A stretch of 64,000 bases of DNA from a virus: the IMG/VR virus record IMGVR_UViG_3300014059_000004; one strand, 5' to 3'. This document shows, one piece after another, positions 1-16,495 of the stretch (the stretch's first letter is position 1; every line of letters begins with the position of its first letter). The notes under the pieces are model-generated. The model saw only the letters and a list, made by a program, of their open reading frames with translations. It made no database searches and had not been told where the DNA came from. A program made the translations under genes and the position numbers.

Positions 1-207
1 TCCGGGCGCATTAGAAAGTACATACCTGATTTTAGAGTCACTTTCGTCGATGGTACGATCTATATCGTTGAAATAAAGCCATCAAAGAGGCTTGTTCAGG
101 CTACGGTGAAGAAGAAGATAGCCGCGGCAGAAGAATGGTGTGCCCTGAACAATTGCAAATTCAAAGTTGTCACTGAGCACGAGCTGAAGAAAATGGGCTT
201 GCTGTGA
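1..207 (+). CDS. 3' fragment of a homing-endonuclease-like gene (PD-(D/E)XK nuclease C-terminal domain); the 5' end lies outside the window
   Basis: Frame 1 reads SGRIRKYIPDFRVTFVDGTIYIVEIKPSKRL...KKMGLL with stop TGA at 205-207. The PDF...EIK motif and the C-terminal WCALNNCKFKVV match the C-termini of the ORFs at 14791 and 21839 (YIPDLYVP..IEVKP / YVPDFIAL..FEIKG). Confidence 0.5.
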   Translation, partial: SGRIRKYIPDFRVTFVDGTIYIVEIKPSKRLVQATVKKKIAAAEEWCALNNCKFKVVTEHELKKMGLL

Positions 208-244
208 CTGTTTACGTTCAAATTTGGTGACACCATAATATAGG

Positions 245-823
245 ATGCCAATTAAGCTGCACCGTCGTTACATTTTGGGCCTAGACGTTTCAACATCAAT
301 CATGGGAATTTGTCTCATGGATCGTGACGTAGTACCAGACGCAGCTGGATCTCACATAATCATGCTTGAAGCTATAGATTTCAAGAAGTGTGCTTCTCTT
401 TGGGATCGTGCTTCTCTTGTTAAGAATCAATTTGATCTGCTGCATGCAACGTTTGGCAGAGATGAGATTGAAGTTGCGGTAGAAGAACCGCTCATGAGCT
501 TCAGGTCTGGCGCTTCTTCAGCTGCAACGATTGCAACGCTCCTTCGATTCAACGGAATCGTGTCGTACATCGCAAGAACTGTCTTCAACTCACCACCAGC
601 ATACATCTCTGCGCCTCGAGCAAGAAAAGTTTGCGGCATGAAGATGCAGAAACCGTCTATTGTCAAGAAGCCTCACAAAGAACAAGTCTTTGAGTACATG
701 AGCTTGAATGATCTATCGTTCAAGCAATGGCCAAAGAAGAAGAATAGATCGTACGTAAACTGGGCACGTGATGCAACCGATGCGTACGTCATTGCTAAGG
801 CTCACAGCATCATGAACAGCTGA
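245..823 (+). CDS. RuvC-like Holliday junction resolvase
   Basis: N-terminal ILGLDVSTSIMGICLMD matches the RuvC motif hhGhDxGxxxhGhxh. An acidic EVAVEEP block follows, and the C-terminal DATDAYVIAKAH resembles the RuvC catalytic DAADALAIAxxH. Confidence 0.7.
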   Translation: MPIKLHRRYILGLDVSTSIMGICLMDRDVVPDAAGSHIIMLEAIDFKKCASLWDRASLVKNQFDLLHATFGRDEIEVAVEEPLMSFRSGASSAATIATLLRFNGIVSYIARTVFNSPPAYISAPRARKVCGMKMQKPSIVKKPHKEQVFEYMSLNDLSFKQWPKKKNRSYVNWARDATDAYVIAKAHSIMNS

Positions 824-847
824 TGGCCAATGTAAGAAGATGTATAC

Positions 848-1891
848 GTGCAGACGCTAACTGCAAAGCTTAAGTTCATTGAATCTGTTTTTGGAAGCGG
901 TTTTCTCGCCGCAAATGGAAAAAATTTCGGCGTTAGATGTCCAATATGCGCTCCACGTGACATGAGCAAGAAGAAGCTCGTCATCAGAGTTGATGATGAT
1001 CTTACGCATTGTTGGACGTGTGGTTACGGCGCATGCTCTCTTGCTCCCTTGATTAAGAAGTACGGGTCGCAAGATAGTCTCAATCGCTACAGGGATGAGT
1101 TTATGCCTGAGACGGCTAAAAGTCGATGGCGATCAAACGACTCTGAACCAGAAAAGTTGCCCGATGAACTTAAGCTGCCTGAACAGTTTACTTTGCTGAC
1201 GACTGCGGCAATGAACAATCCAGACGTTCTAGCTGCTTGGAATTATCTCAAGTCTAGAAACGTCACGAGAAAAGATGCATGGTTCTTCAAACTTGGTATC
1301 TCTAACGAATTGCGCTGGAAGCGGCGGATAATAATTCCTTCGTTCGATTCCGAAGGCAAGTTGAATTACTTCGTTGCGAGGAACATCGATCCTTTCGATC
1401 GTCGTCCAAAGTATGATGGCCCAGACGTCTTGAAGTCAAAGATCATATTTAACGAGATAAACGTTGATTGGTCATCTAGGCTCGTCATCGTTGAAGGTGC
1501 GTTTGATCTGATGAAATGTCCTGAGAACACTGTACCGCTGTTGGGTTCAGATCTTAGCGAGAAATCTGAGCTTTTTTCTAAGATACTAGTCAACGATACG
1601 AAAGTTTCTATAGCACTTGATGGAGACATGTGGGACGTTAAAGTTCCAAAGCTGTCGAAGAAGTTGAAAGAATACGATATAGATCACAACATTGTAGACC
1701 TCCGGCAACATGGTGATCCTGGGAAGATGACGAAAGCTGCATTTCGTGAAAGTCTTGATTGTGCAGTTACGCTTGACTGGAACGATAAGTTCTTTAGCAA
1801 GCTGAATAGGGCATCTACAATGTCGTTGCGCATGCGTTCTGATACTTACAGAAGTGAACATGCGCAAAAGATCACAGATCGTAATCACTGA
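848..1891 (+). CDS. DNA primase (T4 gp61-like / DnaG-type zinc-binding + TOPRIM)
   Basis: GTG start. Zinc ribbon CPICx19HCWTCG. TOPRIM-like motifs VIVEGAFDLMK and DGDMWD. Confidence 0.6.
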   Translation: MQTLTAKLKFIESVFGSGFLAANGKNFGVRCPICAPRDMSKKKLVIRVDDDLTHCWTCGYGACSLAPLIKKYGSQDSLNRYRDEFMPETAKSRWRSNDSEPEKLPDELKLPEQFTLLTTAAMNNPDVLAAWNYLKSRNVTRKDAWFFKLGISNELRWKRRIIIPSFDSEGKLNYFVARNIDPFDRRPKYDGPDVLKSKIIFNEINVDWSSRLVIVEGAFDLMKCPENTVPLLGSDLSEKSELFSKILVNDTKVSIALDGDMWDVKVPKLSKKLKEYDIDHNIVDLRQHGDPGKMTKAAFRESLDCAVTLDWNDKFFSKLNRASTMSLRMRSDTYRSEHAQKITDRNH

Positions 1892-2837
1892 AGCACGCCT
1901 CAGAAAGATTATTGAAGAAGAGCTAGTACGAGATTATCTCATCAAAGAAGGTATGTGGGATGATGTGAAAGGCGGAGTTCAGAAGCTTTCTGCGTACGTC
2001 TCAAAGCAATTTAAGCAAGTCGCAGCTCAATGGGCGGCTGCAATATCTGAGAAGATCTCATTGTTTTCAAAGATGCCAGACGGGCTGAAGAAAGTGATGG
2101 GAGTCTTGAAGACTGCAATGTCTGAATCTGGCGAATCATTTAACCTCGATGAAGGTTTGCAGGCCGCCAAGGAGCTTGGTAAGTTCAACAAAGAAGTCGC
2201 TCTGAGCGCAGCACAGGAAGACCTGATGGGTCCTGTTCATGATAAAGCTGCTCGTGCGCAAAAGCAGAAGAACGAGATGAAGCAACAGTTCGCTGCTACG
2301 CTGATATTGTCTGAAGCATTGAATGTTTCTGAACCCCGCGTGCTTAAGGAAGATTTCGGTGTAACTGCTGCAGCTGGTCTTGGACTAGCGGTGCTCGGTG
2401 GTTTGCCGATGATCTTTAAGGGATTGCACAAGCTAGCAGTGATGTTGGGCGCAACTCGAGTTGCTTCAATGCTAGAGAAGGCAGAGAAGGTCACGCACCA
2501 CTTCGAGCAAAAAGTAATCACAAACATCATCCCAGACAAGATGGCGTTCCTTGTTTACAAGGGTTTGTGGAACATGGGCATCAAGCTGACGAAGACGAAA
2601 GAGCCTTACAATGAGATTGAAATTAAGGCTGAAAAAGATGGTGTAGAAGCTATCAAGAAGGCAAAGGGTCTCATATACAAAGTCATCTTGATCTACTTTG
2701 CTTGGAACGGCATACAGGGTGTTCTGCATGCTGGTGCATCGTTGCTTGGTTTTGTTGAAGGTGGAGCAACAGCAATCAAGGGAATTGAGCTTGCAAAAGG
2801 TGCTGCAGAAGTTGCAAAGCTAGCTCGCGCAGTCTAA
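1860..2837 (+). CDS. hypothetical protein with a CTS-like N-terminal leader and a hydrophobic C-terminal half (possible injected or internal head protein)
   Basis: The ORF track starts at 1854 (GTG); the first ATG is at 1860. N-terminal ITEARLRKIIEEEL motif. C-terminal GLGLAVLGGLPMIF...VILIYFAWNGIQGVLHAGASLLGF is membrane-like. Confidence 0.45.
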   Translation: MRKRSQIVITEARLRKIIEEELVRDYLIKEGMWDDVKGGVQKLSAYVSKQFKQVAAQWAAAISEKISLFSKMPDGLKKVMGVLKTAMSESGESFNLDEGLQAAKELGKFNKEVALSAAQEDLMGPVHDKAARAQKQKNEMKQQFAATLILSEALNVSEPRVLKEDFGVTAAAGLGLAVLGGLPMIFKGLHKLAVMLGATRVASMLEKAEKVTHHFEQKVITNIIPDKMAFLVYKGLWNMGIKLTKTKEPYNEIEIKAEKDGVEAIKKAKGLIYKVILIYFAWNGIQGVLHAGASLLGFVEGGATAIKGIELAKGAAEVAKLARAV

Positions 2838-2882
2838 GTCTAAACTATCTGAAAGTGTACAGAATGTAGCTGTAGAAATACT

Positions 2883-3569
2883 ATGGCTAGTAGTGCACAG
2901 TTAGATAGAAATATGATCAGTCTATGCCATATCGCTGATGTTCATTGGAGGTCTCAATCGAGACACGATGAATACAAAGAAGTTTTCCAAGCGCTGATCA
3001 ACGACGTCAAGCTAAAGAGCATTGAGCACGTCTTCGTTGGTGGCGATATCTTTCACACCAAGACAACTGGCATCAGCCCAGAATACATTGAACAACTTGT
3101 GTGGTGGTTGAACTCTATGGCTGAAGTAGCGGAAGTTCATCTTACGCTAGGAAACCATGATGGAAATCTTGTCAACATGTCGAGGCAAGATGCAGTTACG
3201 CCGATCGTTGCTGCCCTTAATAACCCAAGAGTTCATCTGTACAAGAAAAGCGGTTGCTATGAGTTTGCACCCGGATACGTGTTCTGCGTATTCAGCTTGT
3301 TTGATACTGACGGTTGGTCATCTGTTAAACCAATCGAGGGTAAGTTTAACATTGCATGCTACCACGGTCCAGTCTTTGGTGCAAAAACTGAATCTGATTG
3401 GTTGATTGAAGATGGATTGACTGTTGATTTCTTTGAAAATTACCAGCTGTGTTTGCTGGGTGATATTCACAAGACTCAATTTCTTGGTTACAGAGACGCT
3501 GAGTTGATCATCGATAAAGATGACTTGCACAAGTATCCGGGTGCTAAGATCATCGAGGAAATTAAATGA
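2883..3569 (+). CDS. Mre11/SbcD-family nuclease, phosphoesterase core (T4 gp47-like)
   Basis: Calcineurin-like motifs CHIADVHW (D.H), GGDIFH (GD..H), GNHD, CYHGP and LGDIHKT. Position upstream of the Rad50-like gene matches the T4 gp47/gp46 arrangement. Confidence 0.8.
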   Translation: MASSAQLDRNMISLCHIADVHWRSQSRHDEYKEVFQALINDVKLKSIEHVFVGGDIFHTKTTGISPEYIEQLVWWLNSMAEVAEVHLTLGNHDGNLVNMSRQDAVTPIVAALNNPRVHLYKKSGCYEFAPGYVFCVFSLFDTDGWSSVKPIEGKFNIACYHGPVFGAKTESDWLIEDGLTVDFFENYQLCLLGDIHKTQFLGYRDAELIIDKDDLHKYPGAKIIEEIK

Positions 3570-6151
3570 CCAAGCTAAAGATCAAAGTAAAGAACCCATG
3601 GATAGCCTACAGTGGGTCAACGTTGCAGCAGAATTATGCTGAATCGCTCGATCATGGCTACTTGCACTGGAAGATCCCTGCGTTGGGCGAGGGTCCGCAC
3701 TCTGTTGAGTACTGCCAATTGCCAAATCCAAAGCCGTTCGTCACGATTGATTGGACGGGCAACGTGTCTTCAACGATCAACGTAGCAAAAAGTTATCCTC
3801 GAGGATCAAGGTTTCGTATCAAGAGCACTGTTCACATCACGCAGCAAGATGTGCATGTTCTAACGACACAGCTGAAATCTGATTGTTCTGCTACCGAAGT
3901 AACGTTCAAGGCAGATCATGTTATCAGCAAAGATCAACTGACGAACACAGCATTCTCTATTGGTCATGCTGACCTTCGTAATCCAGATGTCATCCTTGGT
4001 TTGATCAAGAGCTTTCATTCTGCTACTAAATGCAAAGACGATACTTGGGAAAAGGTGAGCGAGTATGTCAAGTACTACTTGAACACTGTTTCTGCTAGCG
4101 AAGAAAATTTTCTACGCAACAGCAAATGGCGACTTCGAAACTTGAAATTTGATAATCTGTTCTCTTACGGTGAAGGCAACGAGCTTGACTTTGACAAGAT
4201 GAATGGCATCATTGGGATATTTGGAAGCAACAGGATTGGTAAGTCATCAATCGTTGGCAGCGTCATGTATTCGTTGTTTAATTCAACTGATCGTGGCAGC
4301 GTAAAGAACTTGCACGTTTGCAACATTCGTAAACCGTTTTGCTACAGCAGGGCGATTGTTAATGTCAGCGGTTGCGATTACATCTTTGAAAGACAGACGA
4401 CAAAGTATGAGAACAAGAAGGGCGTATCTCATGCTCCCACCGCCCTTAACGTTTTCAAGATGGAAGGTGGTGAAGCGATCGACCTTGGTGGTGAGCAACG
4501 AAATGATACTGAAAAAGTCATCAGAGGGTTGATCGGCACCGCCGACGATTTCCTGCTAACCAGCCTCTCTGCACAAGGAGAGATCAACCAGTTCATCGAT
4601 CATGGCTCTTCTCGTCGTCGACAAATCTTGTCTCGATTTCTTGATCTTGACATCTTTGATCGAATGTATGATTATGCAGCTCGAGACTTCAACGCTGTTA
4701 AGTCACAGCTCAAAGTATACCCTGACAAAGACTGGAATGCCGTTGCTTCTACGCTTAGAAATAAGATCACTGAGATTGACCTAGAAATAGAACGTATTTC
4801 ACATCAAGCGCAAGAAAAAGCTTTGCTGCTAGCAGAAGTTCGATCTGCACTAGCAAAACATAGCAATTTCACACCAGTCTCAGAGAGTCAAGTTGAGCAG
4901 CACAAGAAGAAAGTTGCTGCACTTGAAGCGCAATTTGCCTCTGCAACATCGATCGTTCAGGCGCTAAAAGCTAGCATAGCATCTTCAGAAGAGAAATCTG
5001 CAAAGATCTCCCTGTTGAAAGAAGAGAACGATCTAGTTGAGCTGAAGAAGAAGCTAGCTATGTTGTCATCTCTTGAATCTGATGTTTCAAATTTGAAGCA
5101 CATTGCTGATCGTGATGCAACGCTTCTGAAGCAGCAGCAACGTTCATTGAAGATACTTGATGAAGTACCTTGCGGTGATAAGTTTCCGAAGTGTAAGTTC
5201 ATCAAAGATGCGCATGATTTGAAGCTAAAGATCGATCCACAGAAAGAAAAACTAGCAAAGTCGATTGAGAAGCTTGAGAAAGCATCTGCTGAACTTAACA
5301 CGATGATGCAAGAAGACCTTGTCTCAAAGGTTGAAAAGTTGCAGCAATTGCATGATCTTCATGCAAAGCTACTTCTTGAATCAGAGAAGCAAAAAGTTGA
5401 TCTTGTGAAGAATGAATCTGCGGTAGCCGTGCTAGAGTCTGATCTTGCTGCAGGCAAGGCTAGATTGGTTGAACTAGAGAGGGCACTGAATAATCGGGAG
5501 AATGAAGAGGTTGTTTCCCTAAGAGCTAAAATAGAAGAATATTCTAAGGCTGCCTCGATGCTCGATAAACGCAAGCTTGATCTTGCCTCAGAAAGAGGAA
5601 GGATAATATCCGATGCTGAGAAGGCGTTGGAAGAGAAGAAGACTAAAGAGCAACTGCTTGATAAGATGAAGGTGTATGAGATGATCACGACCGCATTCTC
5701 TAAGAAGGGAATCCCAAGCGTGATATCAACATCTCAGCTTCCATTGATCAATGCTGAGATCCATAAGATTCTAGCAGGAATCGTAGATTTTACGATTGAA
5801 CTTGAGGTTGATGAAGAATCAGACTCAATGGATGTATACATCAACTACGGAGATTCAAAGAGAGTCATCGAGCTGGCTAGCGGCATGGAGAAGATGATCG
5901 GATCTATTGCAATCAGAGTTGCATTGATAAACATCTCTTCGTTGCCCAAGACTGACATGTTCATCATTGATGAAGGATTTGGTGCGTTGGATGATTCTAC
6001 TGTTGAAGCATGCAATCGTTTGCTCATCTCGTTGAAGCGTCACTTTAAGACCATCTTGGTCATCACTCACGTCGATGGGGTAAAAGATGCCGCTGACACG
6101 ATCCTAGAGATATCCAAAGTTGAAAAAGATTCTCGTGTTGTTTATACTTGA
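3566..6151 (+). CDS. Rad50/SbcC-family ATPase (T4 gp46-like) with an N-terminal extension resembling the Mre11 C-terminal region
   Basis: Walker A GIFGSNRIGKSSI. Long coiled-coil. CxxC hook-like CGDKFPKC. Walker B/D-loop MFIIDEGFGALD. H-loop VITHV. Start overlaps the upstream stop (ATGA). Confidence 0.85.
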   Translation: MTKLKIKVKNPWIAYSGSTLQQNYAESLDHGYLHWKIPALGEGPHSVEYCQLPNPKPFVTIDWTGNVSSTINVAKSYPRGSRFRIKSTVHITQQDVHVLTTQLKSDCSATEVTFKADHVISKDQLTNTAFSIGHADLRNPDVILGLIKSFHSATKCKDDTWEKVSEYVKYYLNTVSASEENFLRNSKWRLRNLKFDNLFSYGEGNELDFDKMNGIIGIFGSNRIGKSSIVGSVMYSLFNSTDRGSVKNLHVCNIRKPFCYSRAIVNVSGCDYIFERQTTKYENKKGVSHAPTALNVFKMEGGEAIDLGGEQRNDTEKVIRGLIGTADDFLLTSLSAQGEINQFIDHGSSRRRQILSRFLDLDIFDRMYDYAARDFNAVKSQLKVYPDKDWNAVASTLRNKITEIDLEIERISHQAQEKALLLAEVRSALAKHSNFTPVSESQVEQHKKKVAALEAQFASATSIVQALKASIASSEEKSAKISLLKEENDLVELKKKLAMLSSLESDVSNLKHIADRDATLLKQQQRSLKILDEVPCGDKFPKCKFIKDAHDLKLKIDPQKEKLAKSIEKLEKASAELNTMMQEDLVSKVEKLQQLHDLHAKLLLESEKQKVDLVKNESAVAVLESDLAAGKARLVELERALNNRENEEVVSLRAKIEEYSKAASMLDKRKLDLASERGRIISDAEKALEEKKTKEQLLDKMKVYEMITTAFSKKGIPSVISTSQLPLINAEIHKILAGIVDFTIELEVDEESDSMDVYINYGDSKRVIELASGMEKMIGSIAIRVALINISSLPKTDMFIIDEGFGALDDSTVEACNRLLISLKRHFKTILVITHVDGVKDAADTILEISKVEKDSRVVYT

Positions 6152-6453
6152 GCATGAAGAAGCCTTTCACAAAAGACAGGTTCATTGAAGCTCACCCTGC
6201 AGGATTTTTCATCATAACACCGCAGGATTACGAGGATCCTGTTCCGTTGAGCTGTCCAGTGTGCAGCAATCTTCTTCGCACTAGAGATGATGAAGAAGCT
6301 TACGTTGAGGTAAGCTGCTGCAATCATTGTGCATTGAAGTGGGCTCATCCACGCCGTGAGGCTTGGGCTGATGGATGGCGTCCAAGCCCATCTGATGTTA
6401 CCGCAGATAATTCCGAACGTTTGCCGATTGTAGTCGAGCTTAAGCTTCAGTAA
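6148..6453 (+). CDS. hypothetical small zinc-binding protein
   Basis: ORF overlaps the gp46-like stop. Cys cluster CPVCSNLL...CCNHC. Confidence 0.4.
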   Translation: MSMKKPFTKDRFIEAHPAGFFIITPQDYEDPVPLSCPVCSNLLRTRDDEEAYVEVSCCNHCALKWAHPRREAWADGWRPSPSDVTADNSERLPIVVELKLQ

Positions 6454-6485
6454 AGTTTCTCCATACTTAGCCTTGGAGAGTACAC

Positions 6486-6869
6486 ATGGCTGAAGAGAAG
6501 AAGATCGACTACAACGCGTTGGGTCAATCGATCGATACAACGTTTGGAAGATCATCGACGCCTAAAACTGCGTCATATTCTGTGAAGTTTTCGCTTGCTG
6601 GAAACACGATCACTGCGTCCTATGCAGCAATCGTTAACTTCGGCACAGAAAAAGAGATGATATTGATGAAGAGAGGTTACTCTGAAGAGAGCACCTCTGT
6701 CATCAATGCTGCATTGAAGTCAGTGAAAGCCAATTACAAGAAGTTGTCTGGTCAAACATTGTCGACTTCTGAAGTTAGCACGTCAGATTCTCTTGAGATA
6801 ATTGGGTTTAACGTTCACAACCCTAAGAGAACGGCGTACTATCGTAGGAAGACGACGTTTGAGATCTGA
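6486..6869 (+). CDS. hypothetical protein (position compatible with a small terminase subunit, unproven)
   Basis: ORF immediately upstream of the large terminase, with AGGAG-like GGAGAG before the ATG. No recognisable motif. Confidence 0.35.
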   Translation: MAEEKKIDYNALGQSIDTTFGRSSTPKTASYSVKFSLAGNTITASYAAIVNFGTEKEMILMKRGYSEESTSVINAALKSVKANYKKLSGQTLSTSEVSTSDSLEIIGFNVHNPKRTAYYRRKTTFEI

Positions 6870-6871
6870 AA

Positions 6872-8494
6872 ATGGCATCAGCTAGCAGCATTAACAACAG
6901 AGAACAGCAGATAAAAGAGATCATGAAGTGTGGCCGCGATCCGGTCTATTTCATGAAGAATTATGCAAAGATCCAGCACGCCACTCGCGGTTTGATCCCG
7001 TTTGAAACTTACCAGTTCCAAGATGATTGCATCAAGGCCTTTGAAGAGCATCGATTCAACATCATCTTGAAGTCTAGACAGTTGGGTTTGTCAACTGTCA
7101 CAGCTGCGTATTGCGTTTGGTTTGCAATCTTCAAGAAGGACAAGAACGTTCTCATCATTGCGACGAAGCTAAGCACGGCAATGAACTTCATCAAGAAAGT
7201 GAAGACAGTTCTTGACGGTCTTCCAAAGTGGCTTGTTCTCACGAAGTTCGCCCCAACGAAGCAGTCAATCCAATTTTCTAACGGTTCGAACATTACTGCA
7301 GTTCCAACATCGCCGGATGCTGGTCGTTCTGAAGCTCTTTCGTTGTTGATCGTTGATGAGGCTGCATTCATCAGAGAATTTGAAGATATCTGGACAGGTC
7401 TATCACCAACGATATCTACTGGTGGATCAGCTATCATCATCTCGACTCCTCATGGTGTTGGTGGTCAGTATTACAAGTTGTGGACAGACGCTGTTGCTTC
7501 AACGAACGAGTTCAATCCGATCAATTTGCCATGGTACGTTCATCCCGAACACGATCAAGCATGGTTTGATAAAGAGACTAGAAACCTATCAAGAAGAAAG
7601 ATTGCGCAAGAGTTCTTGTGTTCGTTCGAATCTTCTGGTGACACGTTTTTGCAACCTGAAGAGCTAGATTACTTGAGGGAGTGCATAGAACAACCAATCA
7701 GAAAAGAAGGACCAGCTGCTGGTGTTTGGATCTGGGGCAACCCAGTGTCTAACAGGAAATACATCATCTCAGCAGACGTTGCTCGAGGCGATGCAACTGA
7801 CTATTCTACGTTCCACGTTATTGACGTTGAAGAGTCTGAAGTTGTTGCAGAGTACATGGGTAAGATACCACCCGATAAATTTGCTGATCTTTTGATGACA
7901 TACGGCCGGCAATACAACGAGGCCGTGTTGATACCAGAGAAGAACACGTTTGGTTACTTTACTTGTGTAAAGCTTCGCGATGCTGGGTACAAGCGATTGT
8001 TCTACAAGAACACAGTCGGTGATCTTTTTAGTTACGTGTCAAAAGATCCAGATGCAGTTCCAGGCTTTGATACGCAAGCCAGTTCAAGGACTCAAATCCT
8101 TGCCAAGCTAGAAGAAACGATCAGAAACAGAGCTATCAAGGTATACTCGCAGAGATTGTTTGATCAGCTGCAAGCGTTCATCTGGAATGGCTCTAAGGCA
8201 ATGGCTTCCAAAGATAGTCATGATGACTTGGTTATCAGCATGGCGATTGGAACTTGGTTTGCTACTGGAGCCACTACTGTCCATGAAGACGGGAAAGAAC
8301 ATGCAGTTGCTATGCTAGCAGCTACTGGTGTTTCGAAGAGAGACATTAGCTCCACGTTCAATCAGATCAGTGCCGTTCAACCAGTGATGAATCCTAACAT
8401 GAGAGGTTTTACGCCGCAAAATGTTCATAAGCCCAGGAATGCATCAGAAGTTCGGCATGCTGACGTTAGTGACTTCAGCTGGCTTATGCGGTAA
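6872..8494 (+). CDS. terminase large subunit (T4 gp17-like)
   Basis: ATPase Walker B LLIVDEAAFI. C-terminal nuclease-domain acidic residues (ISADVARGD..., HDDLVISMA). Located before the portal. Confidence 0.85.
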   Translation: MASASSINNREQQIKEIMKCGRDPVYFMKNYAKIQHATRGLIPFETYQFQDDCIKAFEEHRFNIILKSRQLGLSTVTAAYCVWFAIFKKDKNVLIIATKLSTAMNFIKKVKTVLDGLPKWLVLTKFAPTKQSIQFSNGSNITAVPTSPDAGRSEALSLLIVDEAAFIREFEDIWTGLSPTISTGGSAIIISTPHGVGGQYYKLWTDAVASTNEFNPINLPWYVHPEHDQAWFDKETRNLSRRKIAQEFLCSFESSGDTFLQPEELDYLRECIEQPIRKEGPAAGVWIWGNPVSNRKYIISADVARGDATDYSTFHVIDVEESEVVAEYMGKIPPDKFADLLMTYGRQYNEAVLIPEKNTFGYFTCVKLRDAGYKRLFYKNTVGDLFSYVSKDPDAVPGFDTQASSRTQILAKLEETIRNRAIKVYSQRLFDQLQAFIWNGSKAMASKDSHDDLVISMAIGTWFATGATTVHEDGKEHAVAMLAATGVSKRDISSTFNQISAVQPVMNPNMRGFTPQNVHKPRNASEVRHADVSDFSWLMR

Positions 8495-8524
8495 CGAATT
8501 CAATACTTAAGGTGCAAGCAGGTT

Positions 8525-11500
8525 ATGACGATGCAAAAAAAGATCACAATGCCACAATTGAAGAAGATCATTGGAGAAGAACTTCGTCTTTCTTTGAAAG
8601 AAGCTGTCGATCATGCATCGATCAGAGAAGTGGTTAACGATGCAAGCAAGTTGCTTGCAGCTGTTGAAGCGTTCAAGAAGAGTGCCAACGGTAGCATGAT
8701 GAATGCGTTGACTCCTCAAATTTCCGACATTGAGAAGGTTCTAGAGGATATGGTTTCTACGCCTGGCTCATACGTCGAGAAGCAGAAGACCAAGCCTCAG
8801 AAAGTTTCTTTGAAGCCTGCCAAGAGTGGTAAGACGCTATTATCGCTCTTAAGCTTGTTCAAAGTAGTAGTATTAGAACTGCTCCAACAGAATGAAGGAG
8901 CTAACAACATGGCAAAGAAACAAACGAAGCAAAGTCTTTTTAAGCGTCTCACCAGGCTGTTTAAGTCTGGTCCAGTCATAAAGAAGAAGATCAGGAATGC
9001 TGATACTTCTATCGCAGTTGCAGATAAGACTAAGTCGTCTGGAACGTTGCTGTTTCAAAAGTCGTTGGCACCAACGTACGCAACGATCACAGCAAATGCG
9101 TACAACTTGTCAGAACGCCTGATGAGGTATCAAGACTACCAAGAAATGGAGATGTGCATTTCTGGTGACACAAAAATCGCTGTTCCGAACGGTTACAAAA
9201 CAATAAGAGAACTAGCTGAAGAGTGTGAGAATGATCTAGAAAAAACGTTCATTGTTTATTCGTACGATCACAACAAGGGTCAAATTGTTCCTGCACTTGG
9301 AAAACAAGCTAGACAAACATCTGTTGATCATGCATGGAAAGTAACATTTGACAGCGGGTTGTCTATTACTACTAGCGCTGGTCATAGATTGATGCTTCGT
9401 GATGGTACGTATCGAAAACTTGAAGAACTTCAAGTTGGAGATTCGATGATGCCATTTTATCGAAAAGACTTGTTTTCGAATGAAAATAATGAAAATTCGT
9501 CAAGTGGCGGTTATTCATGGATTTACACCATGGATAGTACGCACAAAAGCTGGACTAGAGAACATGTTCTAATTGCAGAATGGGTGTCTGGTCGACGATT
9601 GACAAAAGATGAATGTGTGCATCACATAAACTTTGTTAGATCAGACAACAGGCCTGAAAATCTGTTGATCATGAATAAGTTCGAACACAGTTCTTACCAT
9701 GCAAAAATCAATAACGAAAAAAAGTGGCACGTTAACAACAAAGAATGGATTGACAAATTTAAGAAAACACATTCTGAATGGATGAAAGTTAACAATCCCG
9801 CCGAAAGAAGAGATGTAACTTTTGGACGAATTCTAGAAACGTGCGAAAAGATCGGATTCAATCAATCTGCGGTATGTTCTGCACTTGATGTAAGTGTAAC
9901 GGTTATTCAAAATCGTTTGAAGAAACACGGTTTTTCTAGTTTCGAATTGTTTGCAAAAACATACTGCAATGATTGGAAAAATAGCGGTTGGAATAATTCT
10001 GGTGAGAATAACCCACGCTTTGATAAAACCTTGACGTTTGCATGCATTTGTAACGCATACACAAATGACATGTCAGCAAAGAAACTAGCTGACATGTTGG
10101 GTACTACAGTTACAAAGATCATGAATCGAATTAGAACTGCCGGCTACAAAAATTATTCTGATTTTTCAGCTCAGTTCACTAACCATAAAATTGAATCAAT
10201 CGAGTACGTTGGTGTCATTCCTCTGTATGATCTTACTGTTGATGGCTACAAAAATTTTGCAACTGATTCGGTTGTTTCACACAATACTCCGGAAATAAGC
10301 TCGGCGCTTGACATCTATGCTGATGAAACTGTCGCGGCAGATGAAAAAGGTCGTGCTCTTCACATCTACTCAGACAATGAAAGAGTAAAAGAGATCCTTG
10401 AAGATCTTTTTTATGGTACGTTGAATCTCGAATTTAACCTTCGTTCTTGGGCAAGAAATCTTGTGAAATACGGTGATTTCTTTCTCTACAACGACGTTTC
10501 AGATGATTACGGTGTTGTTTCAGCGTTTCCAATTCCAGTCAATGAAATTGAGCGTGAAGAGAACTATGACAGAGAAGATCCGTTTGCCGTTCGTTACAGG
10601 TGGGTCACTCTTGGCAATCGAATCCTAGAGAATTGGGAAGTTTCTCACTTCCGTCTCTTGGGTAACGACATGTTCTTGCCATACGGTTCTTCAGTCATTG
10701 AACCTGCGCGCCGGATTTGGCGACAGCTTATTTTGATTGAAGACGCAATGCTTGTGTACAGAGTCGTGAGAGCGCCTGAGCGCCGCGTCTTTTACATTGA
10801 CGTGGGTAACATCCCTGCAAGTGAAGTAGAGCTATACGTCGAGCAGCAAAGAAAGAAGCTTAGGACGAATCAAGTCATCGACTCGAACACTGGGCGAGTT
10901 GACTTGCGCTATAATCCAATGTCTGTTGATGAGGATTATCTCATGCCGGTCCGCGGTGCAGAATCTGGAACGAAGATAGAAACACTTGCAGGCGGACAGA
11001 ACACTGCAGCAGTTGAAGACGTAGCATACATCCAGAAAAAGCTATTTGCGGCGCTGAAAATTCCTCGTGCATACTTGGGTTACGATGAGGCGCTATGCCT
11101 GGATCAGTCAACTTCTATCCCACTTTACGATGGTCGGACATTGACAATAGAAGAAATAGCGACTGAGTTTAACGCTGGAAAACAGAACTGGACATACACG
11201 ATCGATTCATCAGGCAAACATGTTCCTGGAAAAATTATCGATGCATGGAAGACAAAAGACGTTACTGAACTTTATCATGTGACTCTTGATAATGGTCATG
11301 TTGTCAAGTGCACAGCAAATCATCCATTCATGCTTAGAGATGGCACGTATCGTCGAGCAGATGAATTGAAGAAGGATGACAGTCTGATGCCAGTTTATAG
11401 AAAGTTTTCGTCAAAGTCTGATGGTGATTTTCAGAATGGCTATGAAAAAATTCTGAACAATAATACTGGACGTTGGGAATATACACATCGTCTAGCAAAC

Positions 11501-13318
11501 GAAGCTGGACTAGTTACTGATCATGCATCACGTGATCTTGAGAGATCATATGTAATTCATCATATCGATCATGATAAACGAAATAACAATCCAACAAATT
11601 TGATCAAGATGGGCAAGCGTGCTCATATTTTGCATCATTCTAGCGGTGCACGTGCTAATTTGTTGTCAAACACTGCTCGCGTCGCTCTTCGTGAAACAAT
11701 GAAGACGCAAAAGTACATCGATGATCATCTTAAAGGCGTTCAGAACAGCTGGGATAATTCAATCACGAGAAGAAATTCAATTGCTGTATCAAATTCACAA
11801 CAAAAACGTGTGAATATTTCAATCGAATCATTTAATGAATTGGCACTTAAATGTAGTGCAAGATCAGAATTTTATAAGCGTCTTAAGAGCGATTTGAACG
11901 TTAGTCGTACGTGCTTTGTTAACAACTTGTCTAGATCAACAATTGACGTTCGAACGTGGTTGTCATCTCATTTTGGTGTTATTAAGCATCGTGGAAATAG
12001 TAAGAAACTTAACTTCAATTTGCAAGACTTGATTGATGAATGCGTTAAACACAAAATTCGTAGCATAACTGAGTGGAGGCGTTGTAAGGATGTTTCGGTT
12101 AGTGGGCATGTTGTTAAACGAGTTTTGAATAACGCAGGGTACAAAGATTTTGCTAGCTTTGCAAAAACGTTGAATCATCAAATTGTTAACGTCGAACTAG
12201 TAAAACTAGACGAACCGCGAGCCGTCTATGATTTGACGATTGAGGGAAATCATAATTTTGCCATTGAAGCTTCAGAGTCAGAATGTAGCGATGACAGCTT
12301 GTCAAGTATGATTGTTGTTCACAACAGTTCAAAGGCAACGCTAGCCCAAGAAGATATCAGATTTTCCAGGACAATCTCAGTAATCCAGAAAACAATCATC
12401 TCTGAGCTTAATAAGCTAGCGATCATTCACCTATATGCTCATGGTTTTGACGGAGAGGATCTGCAGAATTTTACTCTTCGTCTTTCGAATCCTTCTACTG
12501 TTGCACAGCAGCAGAAGCTTGAGTTGTGGAGAGCAAAGTTTGAGATCGCTGGTTCTGCACCAGAAGGTTTTGTTGACAAGAACTTCATAAGAAAAGAAAT
12601 TTGGGGTCTTAACGAAGAGCAGTGCAAAGCTATCGATGACGCTCGTTTGAAAGATAAGATCGTTGATTCAACGATTGAGGGTGCTGCAGCTGGAGAAGCC
12701 GGAGCTGGCGGAGGTGATGCTGGCGTTGATGATCTATTTGGCGGCGACAACGGCGGAGAAGCAACTGGTGGAGAGGAAGCTGGGGGCGGAGGCGGAGAAG
12801 AAACACCACCTGAAGAAAATGCAGGCGAGGAACCAGAAGAAGAGGTTGAACCAGACGTTGAGCTTCTAACTTCAGCAGATTCTTTTGATGATGAAGTCTT
12901 TGGGTTGAAGGTTGGAAATTCTGTCAGAGACGTGGAAGTACCTGTGAAAGCGCAGAAGCAGCTTGACAGAGTGCTATACAATCGTGGTCGCTTGAGGACT
13001 CACGGAGCATCAAAGACGTTCATGCCAGATCTTGAGAAGATGACGTCAAATGATGAGCACGAATCGTTGAACGATCCTTTCGATTCTAATTGGATGAAAT
13101 CTGTGGTTAGCAATCCATTCGGTGAGAGCAGACAACACGAAAGACCAATAATGACGTCAGATATGATGTCTATTCTTCGAAATTGGTCTGTTACCAAGCG
13201 AGTCAATCGTGCCACCGCCACAGCGCAAAAGGTGATCACAGAATCGAATGATGACCTTGATGTGACTGTTGAATTCGACGAAGTATTTAATGATGACGAA
13301 CCAGGAGAGCAAGAGTAA
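8525..13318 (+). CDS. portal protein (T4 gp20-like) interrupted by two inteins; exteins about 810 aa
   Basis: Extein segments LIEDAMLVYRVVRAPERRVFYIDVGNIPA and ...DEDYLMPVRGAESGTKIETLAGG...AALKIPRAYLGYDE match T4 gp20 ([28 protein letters not shown] / ...[23 protein letters not shown]...). An alternative strong start lies at 8909 (AGGAG N9 ATG, MAKKQTKQSLFKRL, cf. gp20 N-terminus). Confidence 0.85.
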   Translation: MTMQKKITMPQLKKIIGEELRLSLKEAVDHASIREVVNDASKLLAAVEAFKKSANGSMMNALTPQISDIEKVLEDMVSTPGSYVEKQKTKPQKVSLKPAKSGKTLLSLLSLFKVVVLELLQQNEGANNMAKKQTKQSLFKRLTRLFKSGPVIKKKIRNADTSIAVADKTKSSGTLLFQKSLAPTYATITANAYNLSERLMRYQDYQEMEMCISGDTKIAVPNGYKTIRELAEECENDLEKTFIVYSYDHNKGQIVPALGKQARQTSVDHAWKVTFDSGLSITTSAGHRLMLRDGTYRKLEELQVGDSMMPFYRKDLFSNENNENSSSGGYSWIYTMDSTHKSWTREHVLIAEWVSGRRLTKDECVHHINFVRSDNRPENLLIMNKFEHSSYHAKINNEKKWHVNNKEWIDKFKKTHSEWMKVNNPAERRDVTFGRILETCEKIGFNQSAVCSALDVSVTVIQNRLKKHGFSSFELFAKTYCNDWKNSGWNNSGENNPRFDKTLTFACICNAYTNDMSAKKLADMLGTTVTKIMNRIRTAGYKNYSDFSAQFTNHKIESIEYVGVIPLYDLTVDGYKNFATDSVVSHNTPEISSALDIYADETVAADEKGRALHIYSDNERVKEILEDLFYGTLNLEFNLRSWARNLVKYGDFFLYNDVSDDYGVVSAFPIPVNEIEREENYDREDPFAVRYRWVTLGNRILENWEVSHFRLLGNDMFLPYGSSVIEPARRIWRQLILIEDAMLVYRVVRAPERRVFYIDVGNIPASEVELYVEQQRKKLRTNQVIDSNTGRVDLRYNPMSVDEDYLMPVRGAESGTKIETLAGGQNTAAVEDVAYIQKKLFAALKIPRAYLGYDEALCLDQSTSIPLYDGRTLTIEEIATEFNAGKQNWTYTIDSSGKHVPGKIIDAWKTKDVTELYHVTLDNGHVVKCTANHPFMLRDGTYRRADELKKDDSLMPVYRKFSSKSDGDFQNGYEKILNNNTGRWEYTHRLANEAGLVTDHASRDLERSYVIHHIDHDKRNNNPTNLIKMGKRAHILHHSSGARANLLSNTARVALRETMKTQKYIDDHLKGVQNSWDNSITRRNSIAVSNSQQKRVNISIESFNELALKCSARSEFYKRLKSDLNVSRTCFVNNLSRSTIDVRTWLSSHFGVIKHRGNSKKLNFNLQDLIDECVKHKIRSITEWRRCKDVSVSGHVVKRVLNNAGYKDFASFAKTLNHQIVNVELVKLDEPRAVYDLTIEGNHNFAIEASESECSDDSLSSMIVVHNSSKATLAQEDIRFSRTISVIQKTIISELNKLAIIHLYAHGFDGEDLQNFTLRLSNPSTVAQQQKLELWRAKFEIAGSAPEGFVDKNFIRKEIWGLNEEQCKAIDDARLKDKIVDSTIEGAAAGEAGAGGGDAGVDDLFGGDNGGEATGGEEAGGGGGEETPPEENAGEEPEEEVEPDVELLTSADSFDDEVFGLKVGNSVRDVEVPVKAQKQLDRVLYNRGRLRTHGASKTFMPDLEKMTSNDEHESLNDPFDSNWMKSVVSNPFGESRQHERPIMTSDMMSILRNWSVTKRVNRATATAQKVITESNDDLDVTVEFDEVFNDDEPGEQE
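9155..10285 (+). mobile_element. intein 1 (377 aa) with an HNH endonuclease domain, in the portal gene
   Basis: Starts at Cys in block A CISGDTKIAV; block B TSAGHRLM. Ends VYDLTVDGYKNFATDSVVSHN followed by the +1 Thr. Internal HNH motif HHINFVRSDNRPENL...H. In-frame length 1131 nt. Confidence 0.8.
11096..12325 (+). mobile_element. intein 2 (410 aa) with an HNH endonuclease domain, paralogous to intein 1
   Basis: Starts at Cys in CLDQSTSIPL; block B TANHPFML. Ends VYDLTIEGNHNFAI...IVVHN followed by the +1 Ser. HNH motif HHIDHDKRNNNPTNL...H. Shares LRDGTYR(K/R)..EL..(G/D)DS(M/L)MP.YRK with intein 1. Confidence 0.75.
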
Positions 13319-13319
13319 C

Positions 13320-14189
13320 ATGTCCAAGCAGTTGACACATAAGAAGAAGAGAAATTCAGGTTTGCTCTATGAATTTCTGATTCGAACGATCTCGCGCTCT
13401 CTCGTCGAAGGCGATCAAAAGAAGTCAGCGACAGCACTAAAGATTTTGAAGCGCAGCTTCAAGCCTGGCACTGAACTGTACAAGGAGTTCAGGCTCATCA
13501 ATTCGCTCGTTCGTACGACAGTTAGTTCGGAACATGTTGCTGCATCGATCATAAATGAAGCTAAAGTAGCTGCTGGTTCGTACGATTTGAAAGCTCTTGA
13601 CAAAGAGAAGTCCATCCTGATCAAGAACATCAATCATCTTATCAATGATGAAAATTTTTATGATCAACAAGTTAACGAGTACAAAGTTTACGCTACAGTG
13701 CAGACGTTGATCAACGAATGGCGATCATCTGACAAAGACATCGGAAAGCTCGCTGAGTACGAAGATCAGCTAATGAAATGGTTGACAACGGAAAAGAAAG
13801 AGCAAGAAGATAGCGTCATCAACGAGGAATCGCCGGGCACTGCCCGGCTGATGATGAAGGTCATGACCAAGAAGTTGAACGAGAAGTACTCGGGCGTCTT
13901 GAATGCTGACCAGAAGTCTTTGATGAAAGCTTACATCTTCTCAACAGCATCCAGCGATCCAACGGTTATTCAGAAGAAGCTAGCAGAGATCAAGGATTCT
14001 CTTCTTCAGAAGATCGATGCTTACTCAAAGATTGAAAAGAACAAGCTTATAAGCGAAAAGTTGTCGAATACGACGCAGCAATTGCTTACAGAAGATCTAA
14101 GCAACGTTGATGACTCTACGGTCACGCGCTTCATGCTTTACGCTAAGCTAGGATCAGAACTTGACCAAGAAGATGGGGATGAAAGATGA
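13320..14189 (+). CDS. hypothetical prohead core/scaffold-associated protein
   Basis: The ATG at 13320 is 1 nt after the portal stop, with GGAG upstream. Lies between portal and prohead protease, as do T4 gp67/gp68. Confidence 0.45.
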   Translation: MSKQLTHKKKRNSGLLYEFLIRTISRSLVEGDQKKSATALKILKRSFKPGTELYKEFRLINSLVRTTVSSEHVAASIINEAKVAAGSYDLKALDKEKSILIKNINHLINDENFYDQQVNEYKVYATVQTLINEWRSSDKDIGKLAEYEDQLMKWLTTEKKEQEDSVINEESPGTARLMMKVMTKKLNEKYSGVLNADQKSLMKAYIFSTASSDPTVIQKKLAEIKDSLLQKIDAYSKIEKNKLISEKLSNTTQQLLTEDLSNVDDSTVTRFMLYAKLGSELDQEDGDER

Positions 14190-14809
14190 AAGAGCAACGG
14201 TTGCTAAGCACGTACGACGTGCATGATTATGAAGTGATCACCGAAGTCAGCGACAAGCCGACAGGCCCTGTCAAGAAGATCATGATGAAGGGAATCCTTC
14301 AGAAAGCTGATACGCTAAATCAGAACGGTAGAATCTACCCAAAGTACGTTCTCGAGCGTGAAGTAAGAAACTACCAAAAGTTCATCCTCGAGAATAGGGC
14401 TCTAGGAGAACTAGACCACCCAGATTCATCAGTTGTTAACTTGAAGAACGTTTCTCACATCGTTAGAGAAGCTTACATGGAAGATGGTACTGTGTACGGA
14501 ACAGTTGAGATCCTTGACACGCCGTCTGGAAAAGTTTTGCAATCACTAGTTGAGTCAAAGGTGAAGCTTGGAATCTCCTCGCGAGGCGTCGGTTCAACTG
14601 CAAAGAAGGGTGATTATTACGAGGTTCAAGACGACTTTCAGCTTATCTGCTGGGACTATGTATCGGAACCATCAACTCCCGGAGCTTTCATGATTCCTGA
14701 AGGTAAAAAGATAACGCAAGCTGAACTAAATAAGGTCTTTAATAGATCTGATCGAATTGACAGGATCTTGAACGAAATTCTCAAGAAGTTATGCCAACTG
14801 GGTCTATAA
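14186..14809 (+). CDS. prohead core protease (T4 gp21-like)
   Basis: ATGA overlap with the upstream gene. NGRIYP...LGELDHPDSS...GTVEILDTPSGK...KLGISSRGVGS resembles the conserved His/Ser blocks of prohead proteases. Position between portal and scaffold/MCP. Confidence 0.7.
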   Translation: MKEQRLLSTYDVHDYEVITEVSDKPTGPVKKIMMKGILQKADTLNQNGRIYPKYVLEREVRNYQKFILENRALGELDHPDSSVVNLKNVSHIVREAYMEDGTVYGTVEILDTPSGKVLQSLVESKVKLGISSRGVGSTAKKGDYYEVQDDFQLICWDYVSEPSTPGAFMIPEGKKITQAELNKVFNRSDRIDRILNEILKKLCQLGL

Positions 14810-15585
14810 AGTTTATTTCTGCTAATTGTAAGCGATGTGGCACATCATTTAGTTATCGTTACAAAGCTAGCAAACGATCTCAAGTATTTTGCAGTCGGTC
14901 TTGTTCGAACAAAGAAGTGAAGCGAAATCGTTCTGAAAAAGATCTATTGTCTTCTTGGACTAAGACAATTGGTTCAGAAGCTGCAGATGAAAAACTTCAA
15001 CGTTTGAAGTTGTCAAAGAGTGAATCTGCAACAAGAAATAACACTGGCAAGAATCATTCAGACATCACAAAGAGAAAGATTTCTGAATCTTGCCAAGGAA
15101 ACAAAAACGTTTTGAAGGGACGAACATATCTTGAGTATTATGGTCCGGATCGAGCAAAACAATTGTCTGAAGAGCATTCAAGAAAATTGAAAGAAGGTTA
15201 TGCTTCTGGAAGAATCAAGCCTTCTGTTCGAACGAAATCAGCACCAGCATACAAGAATGTCAAGCTAAGAAGCATGCTTGAACTCAGAGTTATTCGTTTT
15301 CTAGAAGAGAGCGAAAATTTGTGCTTTAATGATTCATTGTTTTACGAGCATCCGGATGCTCATGTAACTTGGCATGATTCCACGGGTGCTGGTCACACTT
15401 ACATTCCAGATCTTTACGTACCAAGTGCAGAACTTGTGATTGAGGTTAAGCCTCAACGATTTGTTGACAGTCCGACTGAAGAAATGATGAAGAAGAAAGA
15501 TGCAGTTCTTCGTGAAGGATATAAATTTGAATACTACACAGAAAGAACGATAACATGTCGCTTAACAATCCAAAAGGCGGCCTAG
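14791..15585 (+). CDS. free-standing homing endonuclease (Zn-ribbon + NUMOD3-like repeats + PD-(D/E)XK nuclease)
   Basis: CKRCG...CSRSC zinc ribbon. HSDITKRKISES and EEHSRKLKEGYASG are NUMOD3-like. C-terminal YIPDLYVP..LVIEVKP is PD-(D/E)XK. Confidence 0.6.
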   Translation: MPTGSIKFISANCKRCGTSFSYRYKASKRSQVFCSRSCSNKEVKRNRSEKDLLSSWTKTIGSEAADEKLQRLKLSKSESATRNNTGKNHSDITKRKISESCQGNKNVLKGRTYLEYYGPDRAKQLSEEHSRKLKEGYASGRIKPSVRTKSAPAYKNVKLRSMLELRVIRFLEESENLCFNDSLFYEHPDAHVTWHDSTGAGHTYIPDLYVPSAELVIEVKPQRFVDSPTEEMMKKKDAVLREGYKFEYYTERTITCRLTIQKAA

Positions 15586-15986
15586 GATACGCTGCTGAAT
15601 TTCAATCATCGGCGCTTCCATGGGTAACAAGCAGCCAAGTTCCCGTTGTAACGTCTGGAATTCTACGTTGTGACTTTCCTAAAGTCAGTAGGTTCGTAAC
15701 TGTTTTGAATAATGCTAGTGCTTCAGCCGGTCAAGAAGTTCGAATCGGATTCACTAGGAATGGAATGACAGCTGGTTACTACAGCGTTCTAGCAGGTGGT
15801 CAGCAGACGACGATGGAAGTTAGAGTCACTAGCCTCTACATTGCTGGTGACACCAGCAACAATCTTCGAGTTTCTGTTCTTGCTGGTCTGACTAACATTG
15901 ATAAGTCAATGATGCCTCAACTGTCAGGAACACTTGATTCGGGCGACGTTGGTTGGTCTGGCGTCGGTTTACAAGAGGAAATTTAA
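15555..15986 (+). CDS. hypothetical protein
   Basis: ORF in the head module. TAATG overlap with def. Confidence 0.4.
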   Translation: MSLNNPKGGLGYAAEFQSSALPWVTSSQVPVVTSGILRCDFPKVSRFVTVLNNASASAGQEVRIGFTRNGMTAGYYSVLAGGQQTTMEVRVTSLYIAGDTSNNLRVSVLAGLTNIDKSMMPQLSGTLDSGDVGWSGVGLQEEI

Positions 15987-16480: not shown

Positions 16481-16495
16481 TAAGGGTTACAGCAA

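Follow-up and report, generated by a model that had tools for sequence, protein, structure and literature searches.

The viral record IMGVR_UViG_3300014059_000004 was analysed as a stretch of 64,000 nucleotides (nt), referred to below as the window. On its plus strand lie two overlapping open reading frames (ORFs) that between them encode the parts of a Mre11-Rad50 (SbcD-SbcC) enzyme: ORF1, the N piece, with the catalytic core of the nuclease, and ORF2, the C piece, with the remainder of Mre11 joined to Rad50 (Table 1). The sequence LGDIHKT, which includes phosphoesterase motif V (GDIH), occupies amino acids (aa) 192-198 of ORF1, whose stop codon follows 32 aa past GDIH. ORF2 is shifted to the -1 frame with respect to ORF1. 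Its ATG (3566-3568) overlaps the TGA of ORF1 (3567-3569), and a TAA at 3563-3565 shuts the ORF2 frame directly 5' of this ATG; the N-terminus of ORF2 reads MTKLKIKVKNPWIAYSGSTLQQNYAESLDHGYLHWKI / MTKLKIKVKNPWIAYSGSTLQQNYAE. Coordinates and translations agree here with an earlier note on the same DNA, according to which ORF1 (228 aa) terminates after LGDIHKT and a second ORF follows in another frame with an ATGA overlap. As the stop codon at 3567-3569 separates motif V from the next core strands, the nuclease domain is not on one polypeptide.

The start of ORF1 is ambiguous between ATG 2883 and a second ATG at 2913, with no obvious Shine-Dalgarno site at either. Because relatives start with MI(R/K)IAHIADVH (e.g. 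MIRIAHIADVH) and have a length of 215-219 aa, the true start may be the one at 2913.

Table 1. Coordinates of the two genes and their features in the window.
Feature	Position	Strand	Remarks
N-piece gene (ORF1)	2883..3569	+	228 aa, SbcD/Mre11 catalytic core; 218 aa if started from ATG 2913
Phosphoesterase motifs I-V	2928..3470	+	HIADVH 2928-2945, GGDIFH 3039-3056, GNHD 3150-3161, YHGP 3360-3371, GDIH 3459-3470
Acidic C-terminal tail of the N piece, DAELIIDKDDLHKYPGAKIIEEIK	3495..3566	+	missing from most fused relatives
GAGGA, Shine-Dalgarno-like	3555..3559	+	within the end of the N-piece gene, 11 nt before the C-piece ATG
ATGA start/stop overlap	3566..3569	+	proposed site of termination-reinitiation coupling; ATGA, GTGA or TTGA there in relatives
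C-piece gene (ORF2)	3566..6151	+	861 aa, remainder of Mre11 joined to full-length Rad50/SbcC
Basic N-terminal head of the C piece, MTKLKIKVKNPW	3566..3601	+	assigned by charge and by model strand 231-243
Mre11 C-terminal part	3602..4123	+	last core strands (IAYSGSTLQQNYAE...), capping domain, helical Rad50-binding region
Rad50/SbcC ATPase with coiled coil	4124..6148	+	Walker A 4223-4249, signature SGMEKM 5879-5896, Walker B 5954-5992, H-loop 6059-6076

Domain content and predicted fold of the two pieces

Aligned to profiles of SbcD- and SbcC-like proteins, ORF1 matched PHROG 100 (SbcD-like) and ORF2 matched PHROG 77 (SbcC-like) over aa 161-860 (E 1.9e-56). ORF1 also scored 38.3 bits with Pfam Metallophos, for which the cut-off is 21.5, and matched PHROG 35725, a family of fused proteins. 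On the 1376-column profile of the latter, ORF1 aligned at positions 5-228 and ORF2 at positions 439-542; because both match this profile in order, the pair is collinear with one long protein family. The Pfam matches of ORF2, to SMC_N (22.2 bits, cut-off 40), SbcC_Walker_B and AAA_23, were all under the gathering scores. A family hidden Markov model (HMM) detected ORF1 and ORF2 with E values of 1e-112 and 9e-129, respectively, and matched no other ORF. An intact full-length Mre11 elsewhere, which the earlier note had listed as part of what would count against its reading, was not found by this HMM within the 64-kb window, itself a part of the genome.

The metal-ligand motifs DVH, GDxxH, GNHD, H161 and GDIH all lie on ORF1 and are invariant or nearly so in an alignment of 81 sequences (A2). 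Residues G90, N91, H92, D93, H161, G193, D194, I195 and H196 are invariant in it, and so is the Asp found where motif V would have its first His (GDIH). On ORF2, the Rad50 motifs GSNRIGKSS (Walker A), LSAQGE (Q-loop), SGMEKM (signature), DMFIIDEGFGALD (Walker B) and VITHVD (H-loop) were identified, with ~430 residues between the lobes, so that all catalytic and ATPase motifs are kept across both pieces. Walker A, which had been put at about residue 215, does lie far into ORF2, its exact place being aa 220-228. The apex of the coiled coil in the window Rad50 is VPCGDKFPKCKF (ORF2 aa 534-545; 5165..5200, plus strand), with a hook-like C-x6-C arrangement (CGDKFPKC, aa 536-543). A canonical CxxC zinc hook was seen in the Microcystis phage Mel-JY01 (CKHC) and in the huge phage LR756508 (locus L002; CEYC).

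In a profile search against the Protein Data Bank (PDB), the block that follows motif V was aligned with residues ~238-266 of T. maritima Mre11 ('LTIYPGSLIRIDFGEE' / 'GHIHSFREIQKQPLTIYPGSLIRIDFGEEADEKG'), and the same family profile also matched SbcD, Mre11 and Rad50 structures. The similarity of the ORF2 head to the part of Mre11 beyond motif V is far beyond chance. The earlier note had assigned the first ~180 residues of ORF2 to the C-terminal part of Mre11 and their beginning to a motif VI. The assignment was borne out by profile, HMM and fold over ~186 residues; the name motif VI proved loose, the YxGS...QQNYAE block having no metal ligand.

We then modelled an artificial concatenation of ORF1 and ORF2(1-186) with AlphaFold, supplying the 81-row alignment, which gave a pLDDT of 86.9 and a pTM of 0.77; the same concatenation in single-sequence mode gave a pLDDT of 34.7. 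The top Foldseek matches of the model were E. coli SbcD (6s6v, 4lu9, 4lty), T. maritima Mre11 (3qg5) and S. aureus SbcD, with E values of ~1e-13 over 380-440 columns, the alignment spanning the nuclease domain, the capping domain and the C-terminal helices. The end of ORF1 (the tail) is predicted to form a strand (199-211), a helix (212-217) and a second strand (222-227), and the beginning of ORF2 (the head) a strand at 231-243 that leads on to the core strand with the conserved PWIAY. Between strands 222-227 and 231-243 lies a turn, and it is here that the chain is broken. Helices in the C-terminal part of Mre11 are modelled at residues 368-413. In this prediction, the complete nuclease, capping and Rad50-binding fold appears only upon joining ORF1 with ORF2 residues 1-186. 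ORF1 alone is therefore without some core strands of the sandwich, which ORF2 supplies.

Fused and split relatives of the locus

A search of GenBank phages with the locus by blastn gave no match, and relatives surfaced only at the protein level. About 190 of them have one fused Mre11-Rad50 protein of ~1050 aa, and a fused single ORF of 1040-1110 aa was present at ~70 of 80 IMG/VR viral loci and 67 of 80 metagenome loci. Phage Mel-JY01 has one ORF of 1066 aa, and the huge phage LR756501 one of 1202 aa. The metagenome scan returned chiefly fused freshwater relatives instead of the split clade. The distance from GDIH to QQN is 20-32 residues in fused forms, and the loop lengths of fused relatives vary gradually (20, 22, 25, 30, 32, 40 and 55 residues). 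Since most relatives encode a single polypeptide, the two genes point to the fission of a fused gene. On the evidence of these comparisons, the ancestral state is the full Mre11-Rad50 fusion, and the window represents a secondary fission inside the nuclease domain, not a partial fusion. The break lies ~190 residues upstream of the old Mre11/Rad50 boundary, as placed by sequence, in an expanded loop that follows motif V and precedes the next beta-strand of the core. It leaves all metal-binding motifs on the N piece of ~220 aa, and the rest of the core strands remain covalently joined to Rad50, together with the capping domain and the helices that bind Rad50.

Both fused and split forms were thus found when homologues in related phages were compared. 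Short N pieces of 201-233 aa formed at least 120 clusters at 90% identity; they are 62-73% identical to ORF1 (one 99%) and end 33-46 residues past GDIH. Independent sequencing runs and one JGI metagenome together gave 23 contigs with the exact ORF1 protein, and all six of these places that were inspected had the same pair of 228 and 861 aa with the 4-nt overlap. A degenerate DNA pattern for DLxKYPGAE[VI] retrieved eight loci, every one of them split.

These counts bear on the suspicion that the break is an artefact or a sign of decay, that is, a 1-nt sequencing or assembly indel, or a recent inactivating frameshift that left a pseudogene. A one-base frame change at the homopolymer-like AAA would be the commonest type of error. 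Against this stand the identical pair on the 23 contigs, from at least six independent samples, and the at least 120 diverged clusters, which share the end point, the conserved tails and intact catalytic residues, with all motifs retained. Sequencing error is excluded because the identical junction recurs on contigs from independent runs and because of the N-piece clusters, and we give the artefact or decay reading as a whole next to no chance. The earlier note had offered three options, the first of them a natural arrangement with the C-terminal region of Mre11 on Rad50 and a short separate catalytic protein; the conserved junctions and the N-piece clusters speak for that one.

We inspected 15 distinct split loci as DNA. 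Nine have NTGA overlaps (ATGA, GTGA or TTGA), one (L065) has an 8-nt overlap, ATGGGTAA, and the remaining junctions have spacers of 0, 1, 6, 24 or 81 nt, some of them with stops. The frame of the C piece relative to the N piece is -1, +1 or the same, a start codon always being present at the junction, and no conserved slippery sequence was found across the split loci compared.

Programmed recoding would restore a full-length fusion, either by a -1 shift at AAA-TGA (3564-3569) or by a read-through independent of reinitiation. The two frames do abut without a gap, the fused product would be collinear with relatives, and a Lys-tRNA sitting on AAA in the P site might in principle pair anew with UAA. 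The earlier note had argued against programmed frameshifting from the in-frame TAA before the ATG and the missing slippery heptamer. Both were seen: there is no X XXY YYZ heptamer, and the TAA shuts the ORF2 frame right before the ATG. The relatives add to this, with their varying frames, their spacers of 1-81 nt (some with stops) and an unconserved sequence before the stop. In addition, the start codon is always at the junction, GAGG stands at -11, and in six loci a whole gene lies between the pieces. Recoding is, in our judgement, highly improbable.

An endonuclease gene at the same break

In six loci (L002, L173, L182, L183, L184/185 and L186), a homologous ORF of ~305 aa, encoding a putative endonuclease, lies exactly between the N and C pieces. 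In L002 it has 305 aa and is adjacent to the C piece without overlap. In L173 it has 306 aa, and the C-piece start forms a GTGA overlap with its stop; the N piece of this locus and that of L040, which has no endonuclease gene, share 85% identity, the DNA of the two loci having been compared piecewise. A protein search with the L173 ORF returned five more full-length homologues, of which four were looked up (L182, L183, L184/185 and L186). In all four, the ORF stands between a Metallophos piece of 216-226 aa and a C piece of 857-872 aa in a window-like gene order, and its 3' end overlaps the C-piece start by 8 nt. The endonuclease-free L065 keeps its ATGGGTAA overlap as at the endonuclease/C-piece junction of L184.

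The endonuclease combines a PD-(D/E)XK domain with a Ros/MucR zinc finger (31.7 bits), and P253-D254 and E268-x-K270 are invariant in an alignment of the family (A5). The L002 and L173 proteins scored 27.2 and 24.6 bits with Pfam TnsA-like_N (cut-off 26.5). A PDB profile search with the endonuclease family matched only the Ros zinc finger, with Vsr and TnsA unmatched.

Loci with the endonuclease lie scattered among loci that have none. The N pieces of endonuclease-containing loci show 58-69% mutual identity, and each is nearest to endonuclease-free relatives (up to 85%). All six full-length members of the group that were looked up occupy this one break, and sampling without bias puts the endonuclease gene in ~1/15 of split loci. 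Taken together, this is the pattern that would be expected of a site-specific homing endonuclease gene gained and lost repeatedly. In the window there is no intervening endonuclease, and the halves overlap by ATGA. Because relatives carry the endonuclease at the same break, the window can be regarded as an endonuclease-free allele of a 'fractured gene'.

Several other candidates were rejected. A split intein was dismissed because neither ORF has a Pfam intein match, with a library that does detect the intein in the portal gene of the window; the tails are also too short (24 + 10 aa), and the fused L031 keeps the residues. A group I intron in L002 gave no Rfam match, and its flanks are conserved as protein. 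F-CphI, considered as a relative of the endonuclease, has an Endo VII motif and is hence unrelated.

Between the stop of the N piece and the start of the endonuclease gene, the spacer measures 25-33 nt (L173, minus strand; L182, 3968-4000; L186, 1820-1850; L184, 3976-4000). It is conserved in three of the four loci, reading TTGGGnGAnATACCT in L173 and L186 and differing by one base in L182, and is unlike this in L184. By analogy with the hairpins at other fracturing endonucleases, the conserved spacer may serve as a promoter or as an element of translational control. The endonuclease-free split locus L088 has an 81-nt spacer (3853..3937) that could be the remnant of a deleted insert.

Related nucleases occur elsewhere in these phages. 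Extra TnsA-like_N ORFs, one with NUMOD3, lie near the SbcDC locus in L182 (47..1027) and L186 (387..1166), and the family seems to have multiplied in the endonuclease-containing phages. In the window, a 292-aa ORF (21764..22642, plus strand) directly 3' of the major head protein gene (19842..21752) encodes a C2H2/Ros zinc finger and a PD-(D/E)XK domain. Its match to the endonuclease family HMM has an E value of 3e-13, and it shares 25% identity with the L173 ORF as well as the architecture of that family; the phage therefore has a paralogous free-standing endonuclease elsewhere, its SbcDC site being empty. Positions 1..204 (plus strand) encode the C-terminal end of a ~133-aa PD-(D/E)XK protein, syntenic upstream of the primase gene and matched by Pfam TnsA-like_N on identical contigs, which shows similarity to the nuclease domain of the endonuclease (E 6e-10) as well as to head-completion proteins of the T4 gp4 type. 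A T4-like portal of 1597 aa follows the terminase gene (8525..13318, plus strand; Pfam Portal_T4, E 1.7e-63). Because it contains an intein splicing domain at aa ~866-1247 (E 6e-35) and a separate HNH_3 endonuclease region at aa ~300-420, the portal gene has at least one intein and possibly two insertions.

Tails, restart and proposed history of the break

Compared with short-loop fused forms, split forms have ~24 extra residues that end the N piece and ~10 that start the C piece (alignment A1), and the window and L002 share an insert of ~45 columns in this alignment. The tail consensus RDVELVIDExDLxKYPGAEVIEE is kept in 120 clusters, with L, Y, P and A conserved in at least 90%; for the head it is MSKKIKIRVKKPW. 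Net charge averages -5.6 in the acidic tails (n = 120) and +5.2 in the basic heads (n = 19 split loci). In the fused, insert-bearing L031, the charges at the equivalent tail and head are 0 and -1. From the model, and by analogy with the tails of Aeh1 NrdA, we infer an inter-chain beta-zipper with charge complementarity.

At all eight endonuclease-free NTGA junctions compared, GAGG(T/A) stands 11 nt before the restart codon, within the Glu-Val or Glu-Glu codons of the tail. One of these eight genomes has 33% G+C and an N piece that otherwise favours GAA by 11 to 3. In endonuclease-containing loci, GAGG was found at the equivalent codon in none of five (GAA, or no GAGG). A Fisher test on this contrast gave ~0.001, a figure that is uncorrected and, the loci being phylogenetically related, indicative only. 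At the level of sequence, the arrangement supports termination-reinitiation coupling with an internal Shine-Dalgarno site.

We consider it likely that the window carries a natural, expressed two-gene form of a phage Mre11-Rad50 (SbcD-SbcC) fusion gene, and that it is an endonuclease-free allele of a 'fractured gene'. A homing-type endonuclease gene would have made the break, or at least spread it, and would later have been deleted in the window lineage, leaving the N-piece stop overlapping the C-piece start in ATGA. The NTGA and ATGGGTAA junctions of endonuclease-free loci look like leftovers of such a deletion up to the last codons of the endonuclease gene. The C piece would be translated by termination-reinitiation aided by the embedded GAGG, giving the two pieces at ~1:1. 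Strand complementation would bring the chains together again, with the acidic tail and the basic head as neighbouring beta-strands that extend a native hairpin. The rebuilt nuclease domain, tethered to Rad50, would act like SbcCD or gp46-gp47 in processing DNA ends for recombination-dependent replication.

Several points weigh against this history. The low-G+C members with spacers (L088, L090 and L100) have no recognisable Shine-Dalgarno site. The concatenated model forces the tail and head strands into the same neighbourhood, and assembly, 1:1 stoichiometry and nuclease function are deduced from sequence and model. Cleavage by the endonuclease and its target are putative, and the gene is as rare among the split loci sampled as stated above. 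It may also have colonised an existing intergenic junction. The fused L031 already holds the same insert in one piece, so that break and endonuclease may both be younger than the insert. Neighbour-joining trees, which are crude, do not make the split loci a single clade; in these, the Rad50 part of the window groups with the fused, insert-less L010, L092 and L136 (bootstrap 89), which would require re-fusion or recombination somewhere.

Some of these points invite the opposite order, with fission first and the endonuclease later. A fused ancestor like L031, with an expanded loop, would have gained a stop and a restart through a point mutation or small indel, and the new junction would have offered a harmless landing site for the endonuclease in a few lineages; the window would never have carried its gene. 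L031 (1094 aa) has the same ~33-aa insert unbroken, L079 has an intermediate loop of 40 residues, and the loop length is graded among fused relatives. The rarity of the endonuclease fits as well, and free-standing homing endonuclease genes of phages are typically intergenic (review PMC2988022). However, L002 has the same endonuclease family, tails and break point, with only ~29-38% identity and with fused short-loop kin; all six full-length endonucleases looked up occupy this one site; and the endonuclease-free NTGA and ATGGGTAA overlaps mirror the overlap of endonuclease and C piece. We regard this order of events as possible but doubtful.

The case of L002 can also be taken further. Its identity to the window clade is ~29-38%, and the loci nearest to it (L084-L087) are fused, with a short loop; it nonetheless has homologous tails, the same break point and the same endonuclease family. 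Tail and head might then be cargo of a mobile endonuclease cassette, not relics of the host gene, brought in by homing into fused insert-less genes of distant phages. We put this forward tentatively and think it rather unlikely. It is based on the fact that L002 and the window clade, ~30% identical and each with fused short-loop close relatives, share tails, break and endonuclease, and on the split state not being monophyletic. Co-conversion would install the break, the stop and restart signals and a ready-made electrostatic beta-zipper in one step. The element would be a selfish one with its own repair kit, and the kit would persist after decay of the endonuclease as a translationally coupled split enzyme.

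Parts of the picture presented here have been described before. Dassa, London, Stoddard and Pietrokovski (2009, NAR 37:2560; PMC2677866) reported, from Lake Gatun, a fractured 'SbcD-like' gene in which the intervening gene encodes a putative homing endonuclease that is Vsr-like. Theirs was a single short metagenomic locus with no intein, with a 25-residue tail and a 9-residue head unseen in intact homologues, and with an endonuclease whose 3' end overlaps the downstream half (PMC2677866). Compared by described features, it resembles the window in having two adjacent same-strand halves without a split intein and in the sizes of tail and head, and its features are matched by the endonuclease-containing relatives. 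It differs from the window, which is without the endonuclease and has halves overlapping by ATGA. The paper makes no mention of a Rad50 continuation, of the dominance of the endonuclease-free form in a large clade, or of complementary tail charge (PMC2677866).

Mre11/Rad50 fusions of the Mimivirus R555 type were found by Yoshida, Claverie and Ogata (2011; PMC3175470) to be abundant in aquatic viral metagenomes, with a GDxH motif V and an adjacent phage primase. By described features, the fused relatives of the window belong to this family, and the window locus has in common with it the Mre11-then-Rad50 order, the Asp for the first His and the primase neighbour; abundance in aquatic viromes is shared as well. 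In contrast to the R555 type, the window fusion is re-cut inside the nuclease domain, giving two ORFs and not one polypeptide.

The NrdA of Aeromonas phage Aeh1 is split by mobE, and for this protein Crona et al. (2011, NAR 39:1381; PMC3045599) showed that the tails are needed for activity and act as interaction domains, with no RNA or protein splicing. The window shares with it an essential enzyme of DNA metabolism, an endonuclease-associated split and terminal tails at the break. The enzyme and the endonuclease family are different, however, and Aeh1 retains its endonuclease gene, whereas the window has lost or lacks one and the function of its tails is predicted.

With canonical SbcD/SbcC, T4 gp47/gp46 and Mre11/Rad50, the window pair has in common the adjacent genes for a nuclease and an SMC-like ATPase, the fold and the motifs, and presumably the heterotetramer. 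In the canonical systems a complete Mre11 binds Rad50 non-covalently via a helix-loop-helix, whereas in the window that region is part of the Rad50 chain and the non-covalent interface would run through the nuclease core. The general phenomenon, one endonuclease-containing SbcD-like locus (2009) and Mre11/Rad50 fusions (2011) are thus already published. What is new is the conserved endonuclease-free form, the identity of the fractured gene as a Mre11-Rad50 fusion, the predicted charge-complementary tails on a model, the embedded putative Shine-Dalgarno site and the presence/absence series of the endonuclease.

The labels given by gene callers are 'metallophosphoesterase' for one ORF and 'AAA domain protein' or 'SbcC' for the other, and pipelines may call a frameshifted pseudogene where there would be one enzyme. 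The split pattern recurs in hundreds of environmental phage genomes, many of them on contigs >200 kb. With the non-covalent interface apparently shifted from the helix-loop-helix/coiled-coil contact into the nuclease core, the split enzyme could serve to probe how the catalytic sandwich, the capping domain and the ATPase are coupled. The clade, with its occupied, empty and possibly re-fused alleles, offers a data set on the fate of an essential gene after a break by a homing endonuclease, and on whether tails travel. The complementary pair of tail and head is a candidate natural split-protein tag.

The gene order around the locus is primase, hypothetical gene, N piece, C piece, two small genes and terminase. 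The hypothetical gene between the primase gene and the N piece (1854..2837, plus strand; 327 aa) has no Pfam or PHROG match, and its position is kept in all syntenic relatives. The two small ORFs from the C piece to the terminase (6148..6869, plus strand; 101 and 127 aa) likewise have no Pfam or PHROG match and keep their position in all syntenic relatives. ARAGORN found no tRNA genes in the window (1..64000), which has 46% G+C and nearly all of its long ORFs on the plus strand. The contigs that carry N-piece relatives measure 200-370 kb, a length that points to a large or jumbo phage.

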